Shown one piece after another: positions 43,720 to 52,359 of a stretch of 62,349 nucleotides of DNA (the stretch's first letter is position 1; each line of letters starts with the position of its first letter). Source of the stretch: a virus (lineage: Duplodnaviria > Caudoviricetes). Under the pieces are notes generated by a model. That model saw only the letters and a list, made by a program, of their open reading frames with translations. It was not told where the DNA came from and made no database searches. The DNA lies in the IMG/VR virus record IMGVR_UViG_3300028388_005459, positions 1-62,349 of that record. One strand, written 5' to 3'. The position numbers were made by a program, and so were the translations under genes.

Positions 43720-45438
43720 ATGTCCATCGATTATATTGCCGTCACCATCCCTTTTCAGCCTGTTGCGTCAATAAGCGAAACCCTGGAATGGCGGACTGAC
43801 GTTATTACAAGCCGAAACGGAAATGAGCAACGGGTGCAGTTGAGAGATCATCCGCGTAGGTTTCTCGAATATACTTATTGGTTTTCCGATCCATACCACC
43901 AAAGCATGTTTGATTCTATCATTTATCGGTGGCGCGGGAAGTTATATGGCGTCCCGATATGGAGCCAAGTCCGGACATTTGACGGGCCGTTGTCAAGTGG
44001 TAGCGGGTCGATAACATGCGATACAACAAATTCGGAAATTGTCAACGGCGGCATTGTTATTATCTGGCAGGATAACGACACATATGAAATCCGTAATGTT
44101 GACACTAAGACCGATTCTTCGATTACACTACGAGATGCCACGACGGTGGCCTTCACCGCGTCAACATTGCATATAGCTCCGGTTACTTCCTGCACGATTA
44201 GCCGCATGGCTGAACAGTCAATATATACTCACAATGCCGGGTCGACAGAGATAAGGTTTGAAACAACCGCATTGCCGGAAGATCCGACCGGAACAGCCCC
44301 AACTCAATACAACAGCATGGACCTTTTTACCGATTTTTATCTGACTGGCCAAGGATCAAAGGCGACACTTCAGCATCAGGTAGAGCGGGTTGACAACAAG
44401 TCTGGTGCTTTCGAATTATATCGAAACAAGCTGATACCGGATGTAACGTATTTGTTTGATGGGCTGTATTCGGGCCGGTCGGATATTTGGCAGTTTCGGT
44501 ATTGGTTGTATCGTCGCAAGGGGCGACTTGTCCCTTTTTACGCGCCGACGTGGCGCAAAGATATTTCATTGTATAGCTCAATTGGGGCGGCTGACACGAC
44601 GATACAGATCAAGCCGATTGGTTGGGAAAAAAGCTACGAAGATGATCATAGGAAATATTTGTTGTTTCGATGGCAGAACAAAACCAACATCGTTCGTGAA
44701 ATAACGGGCGTTGCGACTTCGGCAAATTATGAAACACTAACCATTGATTCATCTCTCGGATTAGCGGGCGGCGCGGATGATTTTCGCTCTATTTCGGTTT
44801 TGCGGATGTGTCGGTTGGGCGCCGACCGGATCATTATGACTTACCCAAAAGCCGATATTATGAAAACGAGTTTCCCGATCATTGAAGTTATCGACCAAGA
44901 TGCTTTCGACGATCCAAACGCGCCGGGCTGGGATGGTGATGGCGCGGTCGCTTACTTGTGGTATAAAATCGAGGGGCTTGGTATTCAGGTTCCGGATTTA
45001 TCTTCATATTACATCATCAAAGTTCCGATTATTCAAATGAGAACCGATCCGGCCGAATGGCGATGGTATGAGCCGCACGATATGAGTGGCGGCACAGTTC
45101 ATGTCTCTCGGGAAGTCGGTTCTTATGAAGGCGAAAAGGCGGCCGATGATGACCAGTGGACTTTTTGGTCCACGGGAGGAACTGTAGCACAAAATACTGA
45201 ATGGTGGGCATATGAGTTTGCTTCGGCCACCGTGATCAGAGAAATAAGAATAAATGGTAGTGGTGGCATTGCCGGAGTTGTTCCGTATATGTTCACGAAT
45301 TTTACAGTCAAGGCCAGCAATGATTCTACTACTGGACTTGATGGAACATGGACGACTTTGAAAACTGGCTTGCAACCGAATGGTTGGGTAGACAAGCAAA
45401 TAGAATCAAACTATTTCATCATACAAGGTGATGTATGA
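43720..45438 (+). CDS. distal tail-like protein with C-terminal discoidin (F5/8C)-like domain
   Basis: ETLEWRTDVI..NG.EQR; GRLVPFYAPTW; WWAYEF...FTVKASND...WTTL. Confidence 0.65.
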   Translation: MSIDYIAVTIPFQPVASISETLEWRTDVITSRNGNEQRVQLRDHPRRFLEYTYWFSDPYHQSMFDSIIYRWRGKLYGVPIWSQVRTFDGPLSSGSGSITCDTTNSEIVNGGIVIIWQDNDTYEIRNVDTKTDSSITLRDATTVAFTASTLHIAPVTSCTISRMAEQSIYTHNAGSTEIRFETTALPEDPTGTAPTQYNSMDLFTDFYLTGQGSKATLQHQVERVDNKSGAFELYRNKLIPDVTYLFDGLYSGRSDIWQFRYWLYRRKGRLVPFYAPTWRKDISLYSSIGAADTTIQIKPIGWEKSYEDDHRKYLLFRWQNKTNIVREITGVATSANYETLTIDSSLGLAGGADDFRSISVLRMCRLGADRIIMTYPKADIMKTSFPIIEVIDQDAFDDPNAPGWDGDGAVAYLWYKIEGLGIQVPDLSSYYIIKVPIIQMRTDPAEWRWYEPHDMSGGTVHVSREVGSYEGEKAADDDQWTFWSTGGTVAQNTEWWAYEFASATVIREIRINGSGGIAGVVPYMFTNFTVKASNDSTTGLDGTWTTLKTGLQPNGWVDKQIESNYFIIQGDV

Positions 45439-46726: not shown

Positions 46727-47168
46727 AAAAGGCCAAGGCGGATGCGAAACTGAAGTTTCCGGGTATTGGTATTCAATGGGGATGCACCTCGTTTTATGCC
46801 ATGGCCCGATTGATTCTATTGTTGGAATTGAGGCTGGCGATGAGGGATTTTACACAACGAACATGCAAAACCTTATTGATACAACTATTGAACGTCCTGG
46901 CCTTTTCGGGGGTGAAAGAAAAGAGGGTGGGATAAGCGGGAATTTTATTTTTTTAGGTGGCGGATACACTCAAACATGCCCGGATTATTTGTCTGACGCC
47001 ATGCGTCTATCCACTGACCCGCCAGCTTTTCGCGGTGTTGCTTCAATCGTTTTCCATGGTTACGTATCGGCGAACAACCCGTATATCAAGCCCTGGCATG
47101 TAAAAGTTAGGCGCACAAATTGCGAATGGTATCCGGAAAAGGCGTCTATTGATTCGAGGGATGCATGA
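46719..47168 (+). CDS. central tail protein, N-terminal part
   Basis: MGKKG...YSMGMHLVLCHGPID...PAFRG...NPYIKPW. Confidence 0.75.
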   Translation: MGKKGQGGCETEVSGYWYSMGMHLVLCHGPIDSIVGIEAGDEGFYTTNMQNLIDTTIERPGLFGGERKEGGISGNFIFLGGGYTQTCPDYLSDAMRLSTDPPAFRGVASIVFHGYVSANNPYIKPWHVKVRRTNCEWYPEKASIDSRDA

Positions 47169-49051
47169 TACTTTTTTCCATATTTCTTGTTTTTGTTTTA
47201 TATGCAATGATCAGCGGCGGTGGCGGCGTTGGCATACCGTATACCGAAGATCGCAATCCGGCGCATATCATTTATGAGGTGTTGACGGCTCCGGTTGTTG
47301 CGCTTGACGGGGATATAGTTGTTGGATGGGGGGCGGGTTATACTGCAAGCGATTTGGACTTGGATTCTTTCGAGTCGGCCGCAGATACGCTTTATTCTGA
47401 GTATTTTGGGTTAAGCATTGCATGGGAGGCAGAAAACCAAACAGCCGAAGACTTTATCACGGAAATATTGCGCCATATTGATGGATCATTGTATATGGAT
47501 CAATCGACTGGGAAACTTGTTTTGAAATTGGTGCGAGATGACTACACCGTCGGCGACTTGACCGTCTTTGATGAAAATTCAATTATAGAAATAAGAGATT
47601 ACAATGAACAGTTGCTACACGATACGATCAATGAAATTACAGTAACATATAACGACCAGGTTCTGAACAAAGAGCGATCTTTTACCGTTCAGGATATTGC
47701 GCTCCAAAACGTAATTGGTGTTGTTTCGCAAACTAACCATTATCCTGGAATTTCAACCCCACAATTGGCGGCGAAGGTTGCGCTTCGAGATTTGAAACAA
47801 CTTAGCAGCCGACTGATCAAAATGACGGCCATTGTCAACCGGACCGGATACAACGTGAAAATGAATGATGTTGTCGTTTTGCGGTATCCAGATTACGGCA
47901 TTGTATCGGCGTTGTTCCGGGTCGGACGCGTTGATTACGGTGAGCTATTGGACGGACGGGTGCGCCTGGAATTGATCACTGACGTATTCGGCGTTGAGGA
48001 GTCGGTTTATGCGGCTCCGGATGATGACACGGAATGGGAAGATCCGCTAAACGAGCCCGACAATTGCCCGCAAGAAACAATGGTTGAAGCTACGTATTTT
48101 GAGCTTGTAGAAAAGTTTTCGCAAGATGAAGTTGATTCTTACGATGACGATGACGGCATGGCCAATATTCTCGGCAGCAAGCCAAGCTCTGATGCTTCTT
48201 CCATCCAGCTATATACTGACGAAACAGGCTCGTATACGGAAAAGGGAAACATGCGGTTTACCCCGTGGACTTCGCTTTCTTCTGATATTGGCCGAGACGA
48301 TACTTTTATTGATATCACTGGGACGACGTATTTTGACCTGGTATATCCTTTAACAGTCGAAAATCACCTTGCTTATATTGGTGATGAGCTCGTTTGGGTT
48401 GTTGATTATACTGATGACCAAATTCAAGTCAAGCGTGGCGTATTTGATACCGTGGCGTCCGAACACTTGTCTGGCACGAGTGTATGGTTTTTTGAGTCAT
48501 ATAGGCGTTTATACACGGAGGTTTTTTCAAGCGGAGAATCATTTAACGCCAAACTATTGCCGGAAACGCCACGCGGGGTGTTAGAAGTTGCTTCGGCTTT
48601 TGCAATATCTCTTACTTTTGATAGCAGAATGATTCGACCCTTGCCGCCCGGCAAGCTACGGATTAATACAGATAAATATCCGGATTATATCACGGGTTCT
48701 TTGACCGTGGCATGGGCGCACCGTGACAGAACCCAACAGCTAAGCCGGACGGTGACCGAGCAGGATGATGGCAACGTTGGCCCTGAAACTGGCACGACTT
48801 ATACCTTAACGATTTATGACGAAAACGACACTCAAATAAAACAATATACCGGCCTGAGCGGAACCTCTCAAGTGTATTACGTGGATGATGAAATAACCGA
48901 CTTCGGCCATGCAGATAGCAGGCCAAGCGAGAGCTTGCGAATCGAACTAAAATCGGTTCGTGATGGATACGATTCCTGGTCAGAATGGGGTTATACTATC
49001 GCCGAATGCCGTGGCTACGGCATGTTTTATGGGGAATATTATGGGGAATAG
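47165..49051 (+). CDS. central tail/host-specificity protein, main part (GTA/gpJ-like)
   Basis: NPAHIIYE, LKLVRDDY, NEITVTY, WAHRDR, YG.FYG.YYG terminus. Confidence 0.82.
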   Translation: MILFSIFLVFVLYAMISGGGGVGIPYTEDRNPAHIIYEVLTAPVVALDGDIVVGWGAGYTASDLDLDSFESAADTLYSEYFGLSIAWEAENQTAEDFITEILRHIDGSLYMDQSTGKLVLKLVRDDYTVGDLTVFDENSIIEIRDYNEQLLHDTINEITVTYNDQVLNKERSFTVQDIALQNVIGVVSQTNHYPGISTPQLAAKVALRDLKQLSSRLIKMTAIVNRTGYNVKMNDVVVLRYPDYGIVSALFRVGRVDYGELLDGRVRLELITDVFGVEESVYAAPDDDTEWEDPLNEPDNCPQETMVEATYFELVEKFSQDEVDSYDDDDGMANILGSKPSSDASSIQLYTDETGSYTEKGNMRFTPWTSLSSDIGRDDTFIDITGTTYFDLVYPLTVENHLAYIGDELVWVVDYTDDQIQVKRGVFDTVASEHLSGTSVWFFESYRRLYTEVFSSGESFNAKLLPETPRGVLEVASAFAISLTFDSRMIRPLPPGKLRINTDKYPDYITGSLTVAWAHRDRTQQLSRTVTEQDDGNVGPETGTTYTLTIYDENDTQIKQYTGLSGTSQVYYVDDEITDFGHADSRPSESLRIELKSVRDGYDSWSEWGYTIAECRGYGMFYGEYYGE

Positions 49052-49776: not shown

Positions 49777-51093
49777 ATGGGTCAAAATGTATTGAAAAAT
49801 CCGTTTAGCGGCGGATCGAGCCTCCCGGATTACGGGGCCGCCGACGACGGCAAGGCTCTGATGGTCCAGGTCGACGGGTCGGTGGCTTGGGAATTGCCCC
49901 CCGGCGCGGCCGGGGGCGAAGCCACCACGTTTGAAGTGCTCGACGGCCACGGGGACGTTGGATCGGGCGCGGACCAGGTGGCGGTCGGCAACCACGACCA
50001 CAGCGGAGTGTATGAACCGGCCGACGCCACCATCCTGAAGGAAGCGGATATTGGAACGGGCGCGAGCGAAGTTGCGGCGGGCGACCACACCCATGCCAAT
50101 CTGCACTCGCACACCAATAAGACCACCTTGGATGCCATCCCCGACCACTCCGGAGCTTCAGACGGGCAGATTATCGCGGTCCAGGCCGATGGATCTCTGG
50201 CGTTTGAAGATCAAACCGGAGCCGGCGGAGGTGAGGCCACCACGTTTGAAGTGTTGGATTCTAACGGCGATGTAGGAACCGGGTCCGCTCAAGTCGCACA
50301 AGGCGACCATAGTCACGACGCTACCTATGCTCCTATCGCTAAGGGCGTCACCAATGGAGACAGTCACGACCACAGCGGAGGCGACGGCGCGCAGATAGCG
50401 CACACCAGCTTGGGTAGCGTTGGCGCTGACGACCACCACAACAGACAACACGCGCTTGGGGCAGTGGCTGATCACACTTCGGCTACCCTGGCCCAGCTTA
50501 ACGCCCTGGTTTCGGATGCCACGCTGGATGATTCCAGCGACAGCCGCACCCCGAGTAGCCACGGCAACGAGGCGCATGCCTCCACTTTTATTACATCGGG
50601 GGGCGTGACATACGAAAATCTGAACGCCAACAGCGATATTGGGTTGGGCGCGAGCCAGGTGCCTGAGGGCGACAAGGTTCTGGCGCTTGCTGGCGGAACA
50701 ATGGGCGGCAACCTCAATCTCGCTGACAATGATTTGGTCCGCGCCAATCTGAAAGATACGAGCCACGAAACTCAAAGTGTTTCATCGTCTTCCGGCTCCC
50801 TTTCCATCGACCTAACCAACGGCAATGTCGCCACCACCACCTTGACCGAAAACGTGACCAGCTTTTCGGTGTCCAACTGGCCCGCAAGTGGTGATTACGG
50901 CGAACTTCTGATTATTTTGACTCAGGATTCAACCGCCCGAACCGTTGACTGGAGTGGCGCTGGAACGAGCGTCGATTACCACACCAGCGATGGAAACGCT
51001 CCTGACATATCTACGACAGATGAAGTGTATGCGGTTCTCCTTTTCACCATGGACGCGGGCTCTAACGTCCATATTATGGCGAGTAAACAATGA
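49777..51093 (+). CDS. tail fibre with His-x-His repeats
   Basis: Repeated GGEATTFEVLD and QVA.G.H.H; GGTM.G.L motif; beta-rich C-terminus. Confidence 0.75.
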   Translation: MGQNVLKNPFSGGSSLPDYGAADDGKALMVQVDGSVAWELPPGAAGGEATTFEVLDGHGDVGSGADQVAVGNHDHSGVYEPADATILKEADIGTGASEVAAGDHTHANLHSHTNKTTLDAIPDHSGASDGQIIAVQADGSLAFEDQTGAGGGEATTFEVLDSNGDVGTGSAQVAQGDHSHDATYAPIAKGVTNGDSHDHSGGDGAQIAHTSLGSVGADDHHNRQHALGAVADHTSATLAQLNALVSDATLDDSSDSRTPSSHGNEAHASTFITSGGVTYENLNANSDIGLGASQVPEGDKVLALAGGTMGGNLNLADNDLVRANLKDTSHETQSVSSSSGSLSIDLTNGNVATTTLTENVTSFSVSNWPASGDYGELLIILTQDSTARTVDWSGAGTSVDYHTSDGNAPDISTTDEVYAVLLFTMDAGSNVHIMASKQ

Positions 51094-51686
51094 GCATGTT
51101 AATCAAATCGTTATTGATAGCGCAATTGTCTGGTGGCGTCGGTTTAGTTGGCTACGTTTATGGTGGGTATGGCGGTGGTGATCTCCAAGATTGTGATGCT
51201 TATGACCCCGATACTTGGACCAACAAAACCAATATGCCATCACCGGGGAGACATGCTTTAGCTGCGTCAACGATAGAAAATGTTGGCTACGTTTATGGTG
51301 GGTATGGCGGTGGTGCTCTCCAAGATTGTGATGCTTATGACCCGGATACTTGGACCAACAAAACCGACATGCCTACTCCGGAGAGAAATAGTTTAGCTGC
51401 GTCAACGATAGAAAATGTTGGCTACGTTTATGGTGGGACGGACGGTAGTTATCTTCAAGATTGTGACGCTTATGACCCCGATACTTGGACCAACAAAACC
51501 GACATGCCTACTCCGGAGAGACAGTTTTTAGCCGCATCAACAATAGAAAATGTCGGTTATGTTTATGGGGGTCAAAATAGTAGTAGTTTTCTTCAAGATT
51601 GTGACGCTTATGCTCCAGATACCTGGACCAACAAAACCGACATGCCTACTCCGGCGAGATACTATTCAGCCGCATCAACGATATAA
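51090..51686 (+). CDS. Kelch-repeat protein (4 x ~45 aa)
   Basis: GYVYGG...YDP.TW....MP..R repeats. Confidence 0.88.
   Translation: MSMLIKSLLIAQLSGGVGLVGYVYGGYGGGDLQDCDAYDPDTWTNKTNMPSPGRHALAASTIENVGYVYGGYGGGALQDCDAYDPDTWTNKTDMPTPERNSLAASTIENVGYVYGGTDGSYLQDCDAYDPDTWTNKTDMPTPERQFLAASTIENVGYVYGGQNSSSFLQDCDAYAPDTWTNKTDMPTPARYYSAASTI
51147..51683 (+). repeat. four ~135-bp tandem repeats
   Basis: Units start at 51147, 51282, 51417 and 51552. Confidence 0.95.
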
Positions 51687-51696
51687 AGGAGAACAA

Positions 51697-52359
51697 ATGA
51701 ATCACGATTTACATGCGCTTTTATCAGACCATCAAACCGGCATGTCAAGTTTCCAAGACGATTACCTCGTGACTGTTCGTGACGGCGGAACGCTTTACGG
51801 CCAGTATAAGCAATCCCTCCGTGAATTGTATAAACGTTTACGCGGATTGATTGATGAAATTTATGGAGAAAACGGTATAAAAAGGCTGGAACAAAAGATC
51901 GAAAGCCCAACAGATACAATTGAAGAAACCCATGCAAACCTTTTACTTGACCAAGCGAGGTTTCATGCGCAAAACACGTATCGGGAATTTATTAGGTTTT
52001 GGCAACAGGCATCGGCCTTGAAAGATCAGATCGGCGAATTAACGCCGGAGAAACGACGGCAACTTGACGAAGAAATGTGGATATATCGAATCAAGGAAAT
52101 GGCGGCGATAAACTACATGCAATACGGACGGTTGCAAAACAACACTATCGGGTTTTTATCGTCCATGCCACAGCGGATACGGGAGGAATTGTATCCGCAA
52201 ATCTTGAAACCTGAAAACCACCAGAAACTCATAGATGAATACATGAACCGCCCTTTGGATCATGTCGAATATGAGGAATTGCCGTTGCCTGAAACGGTGA
52301 CAATCCCACAAATTGAAAATACGATAAAGGAGGCACAAAAATGTCTAATCACTGCTTAG
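51697..52359 (+). CDS. helical hypothetical protein following the Kelch gene
   Basis: AAGGAG RBS; MSSFQ...TLYGQYKQSLREL..R. Confidence 0.7.
   Translation: MNHDLHALLSDHQTGMSSFQDDYLVTVRDGGTLYGQYKQSLRELYKRLRGLIDEIYGENGIKRLEQKIESPTDTIEETHANLLLDQARFHAQNTYREFIRFWQQASALKDQIGELTPEKRRQLDEEMWIYRIKEMAAINYMQYGRLQNNTIGFLSSMPQRIREELYPQILKPENHQKLIDEYMNRPLDHVEYEELPLPETVTIPQIENTIKEAQKCLITA

Follow-up and report, generated by a model that had tools for sequence, protein, structure and literature searches.

The window analysed here is the whole of viral record IMGVR_UViG_3300028388_005459 (Duplodnaviria; Caudoviricetes), a linear record of 62,349 nt with an estimated completeness of 86%. Its plus strand carries a short open reading frame (ORF), referred to below as the Kelch ORF, in which four similar units follow one another head to tail, each with two variable patches:

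51090..51686, plus strand: Kelch ORF, 198 aa, a 19-aa non-Kelch N-terminus followed by four blades
51147..51281, plus strand: repeat unit 1, 45 codons
51282..51416, plus strand: repeat unit 2, 91.5% identity with unit 1
51417..51551, plus strand: repeat unit 3
51552..51683, plus strand: repeat unit 4, with one additional codon in loop 1 and the last two codons missing
51168..51182, plus strand: unit 1, variable patch YGGGD, within the B-C loop
51303-51317, 51438-51452 and 51573-51590, plus strand: equivalents of the B-C loop patch in units 2, 3 and 4
51246..51260, plus strand: unit 1, variable patch GRHAL, in the final part of the D-A loop
51381-51395, 51516-51530 and 51654-51668, plus strand: equivalents of the D-A loop patch in units 2, 3 and 4

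In translation, the 45-aa units read VGYVYGG-x5-LQDCDAYDPDTWTNKTDMPTP-x5-AASTIEN, four times after the 19-aa leader, and the ORF stops directly after the strand-A motif AASTI. Tandem Repeats Finder describes the stretch from 51147 to the stop as 4.0 copies of a 135-nt period, with 86% matches and a score of 700; unit 4 is the most diverged, with 76% identity to unit 1. The Kelch motif is defined as a repeat of 44-56 aa with a hydrophobic strand, a GG doublet and a spaced Tyr and Trp, and the corresponding signature GYVYGG...Y....W is present in all four units. The Pfam families Kelch_3 (65.1 bits, cut-off 22; 5.5e-18) and Kelch_1 (56.9 bits, cut-off 20.1; 1.4e-15) each match four stretches of the ORF, and Kelch_4 (38.6 bits, cut-off 21.6) and Kelch_KLHDC2_KLHL20_DRC7 (62.3 bits, cut-off 50) match it as well. 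An initial annotation, made from the sequence alone, had proposed a Kelch array at this position. The array is real, with an exact ORF, four head-to-tail 135-nt units and Pfam scores above the cut-offs, and the loop peptides listed at the time (YGGGD/YGGGA/TDGSY/QNSSSF and GRHAL/ERNSL/ERQFL/ARYYS) were read correctly, as were the codon sets GAT/GCT/TAT/TTT, GCT/AGT/TTT/TAT, GGG/GAG/GAG/GCG and CAT/AAT/CAG/TAC. An identical 198-aa protein was not found in a collection of 15 billion proteins. The Kelch ORF probably encodes a Kelch-type beta-propeller that forms the far, host-binding end of a tail fibre.

Conserved frame and divergent loops

The initial annotation had described the units as almost identical in DNA, which overstates their likeness. 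Over 129 aligned nt, identity is 91.5% between units 1 and 2, 86.8% between 2 and 3, 82.9% between 3 and 4, 84.5% between 1 and 3, 79.8% between 2 and 4 and 76.0% between 1 and 4; the longest exact repeat inside the ORF is 46 nt, and no 50-mer occurs twice. The units differ at 35 of the 129 columns. As had been claimed, this variation is concentrated in the loops, taken as codons 8-12 and 34-38 of each unit: 16 of 30 loop columns vary, against 19 of 99 in the scaffold (Fisher p = 7e-4, a post hoc value, the loop boundaries having been drawn from where variation was seen). The same concentration is found outside the window. Among 183 blades from other proteins, positions 7, 8, 11, 35 and 36 have the highest entropy (3.35-3.92 bits), the entropy peaks at blade positions 7-11 and 35-37 coincide with the variable positions of the window, and 92 blades of the close subfamily show the same pattern.

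Third codon positions make up 16 of the 19 variable scaffold columns. Retention of the third base in the loop codons, which had been read as a special sign, is nothing of the kind, with variable third positions amounting to 3 of 10 in the loops versus 16 of 33 in the scaffold. By the Nei-Gojobori method, the proportion of synonymous differences (pS) in the scaffold is 0.19-0.62 between window units (mean 0.38), the proportion of non-synonymous differences (pN) in the scaffold is 0-0.04 (mean 0.02), and loop pN is 0.22-0.55 (mean 0.43); in the youngest pair of units, loop pN is 0.22 and scaffold pS 0.19. Change in the loops has gone about as far as at silent sites. Since scaffold pN is low and loop pN lies near scaffold pS, purifying selection keeps the frame, while both loops can change freely. 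The frame is identical at the protein level because non-synonymous changes have been removed, and not because the copies are young or homogenised, and the pattern of variation within the window looks like ordinary selection.

Gene conversion was considered as a cause of the scaffold identity and is ruled out by the diverged synonymous sites. As for the earlier proposal of blade shuffling, close relatives do differ in blade number (2 versus 6 blades within one 90% cluster).

A comparable balance is seen in the relative L010, which is 70% identical and carries, as the last part of a protein 498 aa or more in length, six blades of virtually one frame. Between its blades, scaffold pS is 0.57, scaffold pN 0.024 and loop pN 0.41, and the L010 array is an old duplication with strong constraint on the frame and free loops.

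Fold model and the face carrying the loops

An AlphaFold2 model built on a 24-sequence alignment has a predicted local distance difference test score (pLDDT) of 93, a predicted template-modelling score (pTM) of 0.86 and 15 strands, with residues 1-19 at low confidence. Its strands follow in the order B1 (21-24), C1 (35-39), D1 (42-45), A2 (58-62), B2 (65-69) and onward. The C-D and A-B turns have two residues each, the B-C (25-34) and D-A (46-57) connections are long, and the variable patches of blade 1 (27-31 and 53-57) lie inside these two long connections. Because the topology is an antiparallel meander, the B-C and D-A loops are on the same face. In its available excerpt, a preprint on Kelch design describes a conserved blade core and top-side loops that vary in sequence and length and mediate interactions (10.64898/2026.03.16.710736). 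The suggestion that the two loops form the ligand face is thus borne out for their placement, both patches sitting in long loops on one face, and for binding it leans on what that excerpt says of top loops.

Foldseek places the model on the six-blade domains of SAKe6, KLHL12 and Keap1 with a root-mean-square deviation (rmsd) of 1.1-1.4 Å over 183-191 columns. The template-modelling score is 0.85 relative to the query (TMq) and about 0.6 relative to the six-blade targets (TMt), corresponding to two thirds of a ring. The model is an open 4/6 arc in which blade 1 has three strands only and the C-terminal AASTI is not modelled as a strand; the AASTI strand that closes the ring in six-blade relatives is here an unpaired C-terminus. 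With four blades only, the modelled protein falls short of the six-blade (or seven-blade) ring that a velcro strand shuts.

Position in the tail-tip module

The Kelch ORF locus is a siphophage tail-tip module, with genes in the order tape measure, hub, Phage-tail_3, DUF2793, 438-aa ORF, Kelch ORF and lysis genes. The tail genes upstream encode a tape-measure protein, a distal tail protein and a hub protein (BR0599 / phiJL001 Gp84). The nearest features are as follows:

47165..49051, plus strand: J-like tail protein, phrog_1101 (2.1e-188), Phage-tail_3
49777..51093, plus strand: 438-aa ORF, fibre-like by position only
51090..51093, plus strand: ATGA overlap, the Kelch start codon lying over the stop of the 438-aa ORF
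51697..52359, plus strand: 220-aa ORF, phrog_1409, function unknown

The J-like protein is 38% identical to its counterparts in Xanthomonas, Pseudomonas and Stenotrophomonas siphophages. It is followed by a DUF2793 protein and by a 100-aa and the 438-aa ORF, both without a family, upstream of the Kelch ORF; the 220-aa ORF and a GH108 endolysin lie downstream. The Kelch ORF therefore occupies the place of a tail-fibre or receptor-binding gene, inside the tail-tip module and downstream of the J-like protein. Its reading frame contains a stop two codons upstream of the ATG, so it is a separate gene, and the ATGA overlap suggests that it is probably translationally coupled to the 438-aa ORF, an arrangement also found in the relative L005. 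A frameshift fusion with the 438-aa ORF is ruled out by this stop, and no slippery site is evident. The 438-aa ORF has an internal duplication, reading twice approximately GGEATTFEVLD-x-GDVG-x-G-x-QVA-x-G-[ND]H-x-H, and contains several His-rich GDH/DHxH motifs.

Kelch modules in relatives

The homologue collection comprised 28 sequences from a word-indexed search and 8 and 23 loci from scans of viral and metagenome contigs. An exhaustive phmmer search returned 20,179 representatives at E <= 0.001 and 588 at E <= 1e-30, some of which are certainly cellular. By tblastn against 50,697 phage records, Paenibacillus phage phiERICV was the sole match (34.7% identity). A single-protein search of genome contigs gave two loci in metagenome-assembled genomes only, at 40% and 34% identity, and no host was inferred because these are so distant.

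The setting of the module in relatives points to tail fibres. In at least 8 loci it is fused to the ends of long fibre proteins, and a six-blade module forms the C-terminus of proteins of 1569 (L002), 854 (L003), 1146 (L006), 787 (L013), 1059 (L020) and at least 498 aa (L010). Elsewhere it is a stand-alone Kelch protein of 299-418 aa beside fibre genes, and often two or three Kelch paralogues stand in tandem, followed by a phrog_1409-like gene. Scaffold identity is up to 91% between the window blades and those of L002, and 95% among the window blades themselves.

Variation on a shorter timescale is visible in one related lineage. Five contigs from different samples (L006, L007, L008, L025 and L030) are 97.9-99.6% identical and carry two six-blade Kelch genes (L006:6022-6882 and L006:7383-8234), 44% identical to the window protein. 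Loop positions were set in advance to blade positions 7-11, 33 and 35-37 and any insertions at these places; codon variation is then distributed as follows:

Loops: 42 of 123 codons variable, 42 non-synonymous, 0 synonymous
Scaffold: 17 of 415 codons variable, 15 non-synonymous, 2 synonymous
Outside the blades: 40 of 974 codons variable, 18 non-synonymous, 22 synonymous

At several of these loop codons two or three bases differ and three or four alleles occur. The loops of this family can therefore be hypervariable on a population timescale, for which intense diversifying selection is the economical explanation; the window's own units have no comparable loop excess.

Four blades or six

The usual blade number in the family is six, as the initial annotation had said of Kelch propellers in general. 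It was found in 25 of the first 37 other sequences, the remainder having five (2), three (5), two (3) or one blade (2, of which one is truncated at a contig end). Of the 12 other arrays in the close subfamily, 11 are six-bladed and the twelfth is an open-ended frame with 22 blades. Among representatives shorter than 700 aa, 47 of 50 have six, the others five, seven and twelve; these 50 are the ones below that length among the 147 new proteins in the best 150 phmmer matches, the other three matches being homologues already in the word-indexed set. A four-blade relative was found neither among the first 37 sequences, nor in the close subfamily, nor among the 50 short representatives. The functional unit of the family is thus a six-blade ring closed by the C-terminal strand, and the four blades of the window represent a collapsed or deleted array or part of an oligomer, in line with the choice between oligomerisation and collapsed assembly that the initial annotation had offered. 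The 22-blade frame, L012:1-3840, is a single frame open at its 5' end, and would encode a giant fibre protein with several propellers; the top phmmer matches are up to 7,663 aa long, and as many as 21 stretches are matched in one protein.

The leading explanation, held tentatively and at a little under an even chance, is that the gene really has six blades and that two of them, resembling the retained ones, were lost in short-read assembly. This would account for the rule of six in relatives, among which four is never seen, and for the open 4/6 arc of the model with its unpaired closing strand. Three relatives, L009 (the closest), L011 and L014, have contigs that begin inside the array. The proteins P0021 (two blades) and P0180 (six blades) belong to one 90% cluster and are the same protein, with an N-terminal domain and FN3, which is also consistent with loss of blades in assembly. 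Four further members of this cluster, of 130 aa, end before the FN3 and Kelch parts. In the accessible part of a study of long-read viral data, Kelch repeats are 9 times more frequent than in assemblies, and repeats are blamed for fragmentation (PMC9238414). On the other hand, the four units of the window are distinct enough that reads of at least 100 nt, or a k above 46, would resolve the path; collapse would require two more blades that nearly copy those present, and the ORF has proper ends, with its own N-terminus and closing strand.

A real four-blade gene whose product oligomerises is a less likely alternative. The C-terminal strand of one chain would complete blade 1 of the next, for example in an eight-blade dimer, or in two six-blade rings built from three chains on the three-fold axis of the fibre. 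In its favour, databases hold chains of one, two and three blades with proper N-termini and a closing C-terminus (P0028/P0181, from two contigs of 11 and 13 kb, P0020, P0022 and P0015), the blades of the window are nearly symmetrical, with 95% scaffold identity, and no other blade that could complement the array exists in the window, where 1254 six-frame segments gave 0 further matches. However, six is not a multiple of four, most of the short forms stem from short-read or k=31 assemblies, where collapse could explain every one of them, and four-blade relatives are missing from the sets described above. What likelihood is left falls to a real but defective deletion variant. The odd blade number of the window may be an assembly fault, and blade counts from short-read assemblies of such arrays are not to be trusted.

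Proposed function and known systems

In the proposed mechanism, the Kelch propeller module would serve as the distal, host-binding part of the fibre in this group of tailed phages and in this record a small gene of its own, coupled to the fibre-like gene before it, would provide it. Every 45-aa unit would make up one four-stranded blade with a frame held nearly unchanged by purifying selection, and the B-C loop and the last part of the D-A loop, on one propeller face, would be free to change. In this family these loops would be the sites of host-range selection, and a mutagenic retroelement would not be needed for the pattern. The four-blade gene would be either two blades short, through assembly collapse or in-frame deletion between similar units, or completed into a ring by other chains. 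A fibre tip is the best reading from position and homology, from which we infer that the protein is part of the virion, binds a receptor on the host and is coupled to the product of the 438-aa ORF.

Several known systems offer comparison. The window protein resembles the Kelch domains of Keap1, KLHL12 and KLHL20 in its 45-aa repeat, GG doublet, spaced Tyr and Trp and four-stranded blades, and its model lies within 1.1-1.7 Å rmsd of solved Kelch domains; variable top-face loops used for binding are, as far as the excerpted source describes them, a further shared feature. It differs from cellular Kelch proteins in having four blades instead of six, in lacking BTB/BACK partner domains, in the far greater likeness of its blades (95% scaffold identity) and in its viral, extracellular context. 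The best matches by both sequence and fold are the SAKe6 designs (PDB 7onc, 7op4 and 8pjw; E 3.9e-29 for 8pjw), which share a consensus-like repeated blade with exchangeable top loops. SAKe6 is man-made, derived from Keap1 by ancestral reconstruction and six-bladed, whereas the phage protein occurs in nature and has loops that vary between its blades. The part of the preprint that was available puts this design forward as an antibody-like binder scaffold (10.64898/2026.03.16.710736). On the boldest reading, the phage module would itself be a natural antibody-like scaffold, an idealised blade repeated in a ring, with top loops rewritten far faster than the remainder of the genome by a targeted process other than a classical cis-acting retroelement, and with a truly polymorphic blade number per chain (1, 2, 3, 4 or 6) because several fibre chains build the rings, the window gene being a working member of this modular system; such a combination is improbable. 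Among phage proteins, Kelch protein CBB_552 of jumbo phage vB_PcaM_CBB was detected in the particle by mass spectrometry, according to the portion of the report available (PMC5259590). That phage is a jumbo myovirus, and no fibre-tip role is reported for CBB_552.

The analysis shows the repeats and their fold class, where the gene lies in the genome, how selection has acted on it and that the records searched have no retroelement parts. A number of points weigh against the preferred reading, a host-binding propeller at the end of the tail fibre. The codon counts within the window are small (30 loop and 99 scaffold nt per pair), the older unit pairs are near saturation, and the geometry of the model may come from the six-blade homologues in its alignment. 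The closest pair of relatives, L010 and L011, shows no difference across the shared 542 nt of array, and the L026/L027 pair, with 3 differences, is too alike to inform on loop variation. The 438-aa ORF has no Pfam, PHROG or PDB sequence match and no recognisable family, and comparison with the fibre N-termini of relatives gave no similarity (BLASTP E >= 1.6). Population-level loop variation comes from a lineage just 44% identical to the window protein, and its multi-nucleotide codon changes, with three or four alleles per site, are hard to reach by single steps and could involve a targeted process. Finally, the source annotation of the Joint Genome Institute (JGI) names 5 of the 28 homologues 'N-acetylneuraminic acid mutarotase', an enzyme of the same fold.

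This name raises the alternative of a Kelch-fold enzyme or sugar-handling (mutarotase-like) protein, or of a non-structural host-interaction protein, in place of a receptor binder. Apart from the five names, a Pfam NANM match points in this direction, but its 24.1 bits lie under the cut-off of 45. Fusion of the module to the ends of long fibre proteins does not suit an enzyme, and the conserved residues are structural while only the top-face loops change fast, the opposite of a fixed active site; this alternative is accordingly very doubtful.

If the module is a host-binding fibre tip, its significance extends beyond one record. Metagenomes commonly contain Kelch propellers at the tips of phage fibres, full-text literature searches found no study of them as receptor binders, and the combination of a rigid frame with variable binding loops holds for a large, little-studied family of such tips. 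With a conserved frame and few variable loop positions, Kelch tips offer a compact scaffold for host-range prediction and engineering.

Source of the loop variation

The initial annotation had seen in the loop codons a resemblance to adenine-directed mutagenesis by a diversity-generating retroelement (DGR). DGR targets such as Mtd of Bordetella phage are tail-fibre tips with a rigid frame and few hypervariable surface residues, in which the Kelch protein is alike. The Kelch protein is unlike Mtd in having no reverse transcriptase, template repeat or adenine bias, and in its Kelch rather than C-type lectin fold. The reverse transcriptase family RVT_1 was absent from the window record (86% complete) and from the records of all 7 relatives searched (17-56% complete), in searches where control genomes gave matches. 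No template copy was found, as a search of the 62-kb record with the array DNA gave back the array alone, so the profile and self-match searches agree with the initial annotation that neither component is visible in the window. When each unit in turn was treated as the putative template, 15-36% of mismatches fell on A, about the share of A in the sequence, and the 3-nt insertion in loop 1 of unit 4 is contrary to a substitution-only DGR pattern. All three marks of a DGR target, namely a reverse transcriptase, a template repeat and adenine-confined substitutions, are lacking. DGR mutagenesis is also at odds with a loop divergence no higher than the synonymous divergence of the scaffold. A cis-acting DGR is excluded for the assembled sequence, and there is no need to invoke one that acts in trans from the missing 14% of the genome or from the host.

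There is still the idea that the loops are diversified by a targeted mutator, either such a trans-acting DGR or an unknown mechanism, and the L006 lineage is where it finds most to build on. There, loop codons differ by 2-3 nt with up to 4 alleles among five contigs, the 415 scaffold codons hold 2 synonymous changes only, and many variable codons fit NNY or NNA; moreover, every record is incomplete (17-86%). Against this, RVT_1 occurs in 0 of the 8 records searched, including records of the L006 lineage, and neither the window nor the 20.8-kb L006 record, queried with its second array (L006b), contains a template-like copy. The variation in the L006 lineage extends over 12 blades, about 1.7 kb and two genes, unlike a single pair of variable and template repeats. 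The adenine share, the loop indel and the youngest pair of the window, as given above, fit a mutator no better, and a full-text literature search turned up no paper linking Kelch with DGRs. A targeted mutator is thus highly improbable.

Accessory features of the tail region

A gene like the 220-aa phrog_1409 ORF directly follows the Kelch gene or genes in all 6 loci compared, the other five being L002:7250-7903, L003:9336-10025, L005:6904-7542, L006:8168-8887 and L009:160-822. The encoded proteins have 212-239 aa and no Pfam or PDB match, and could be fibre assembly factors or merely the product of the first gene of the next module.

Many stand-alone six-blade homologues of 300-330 aa have a Cys-rich motif (e.g. 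FFxPGCxCC) just before blade 1. It is carried by P0003, P0005-P0009, P0012, P0013, P0016-P0018 and P0025, and the window protein is without it.

The 572-aa distal tail protein of the window (43720-45438) has a C-terminal F5/8 type C (discoidin-like) match of 25.4 bits, below the cut-off of 28.2. This region may provide the tail tip with a second module that binds carbohydrate.

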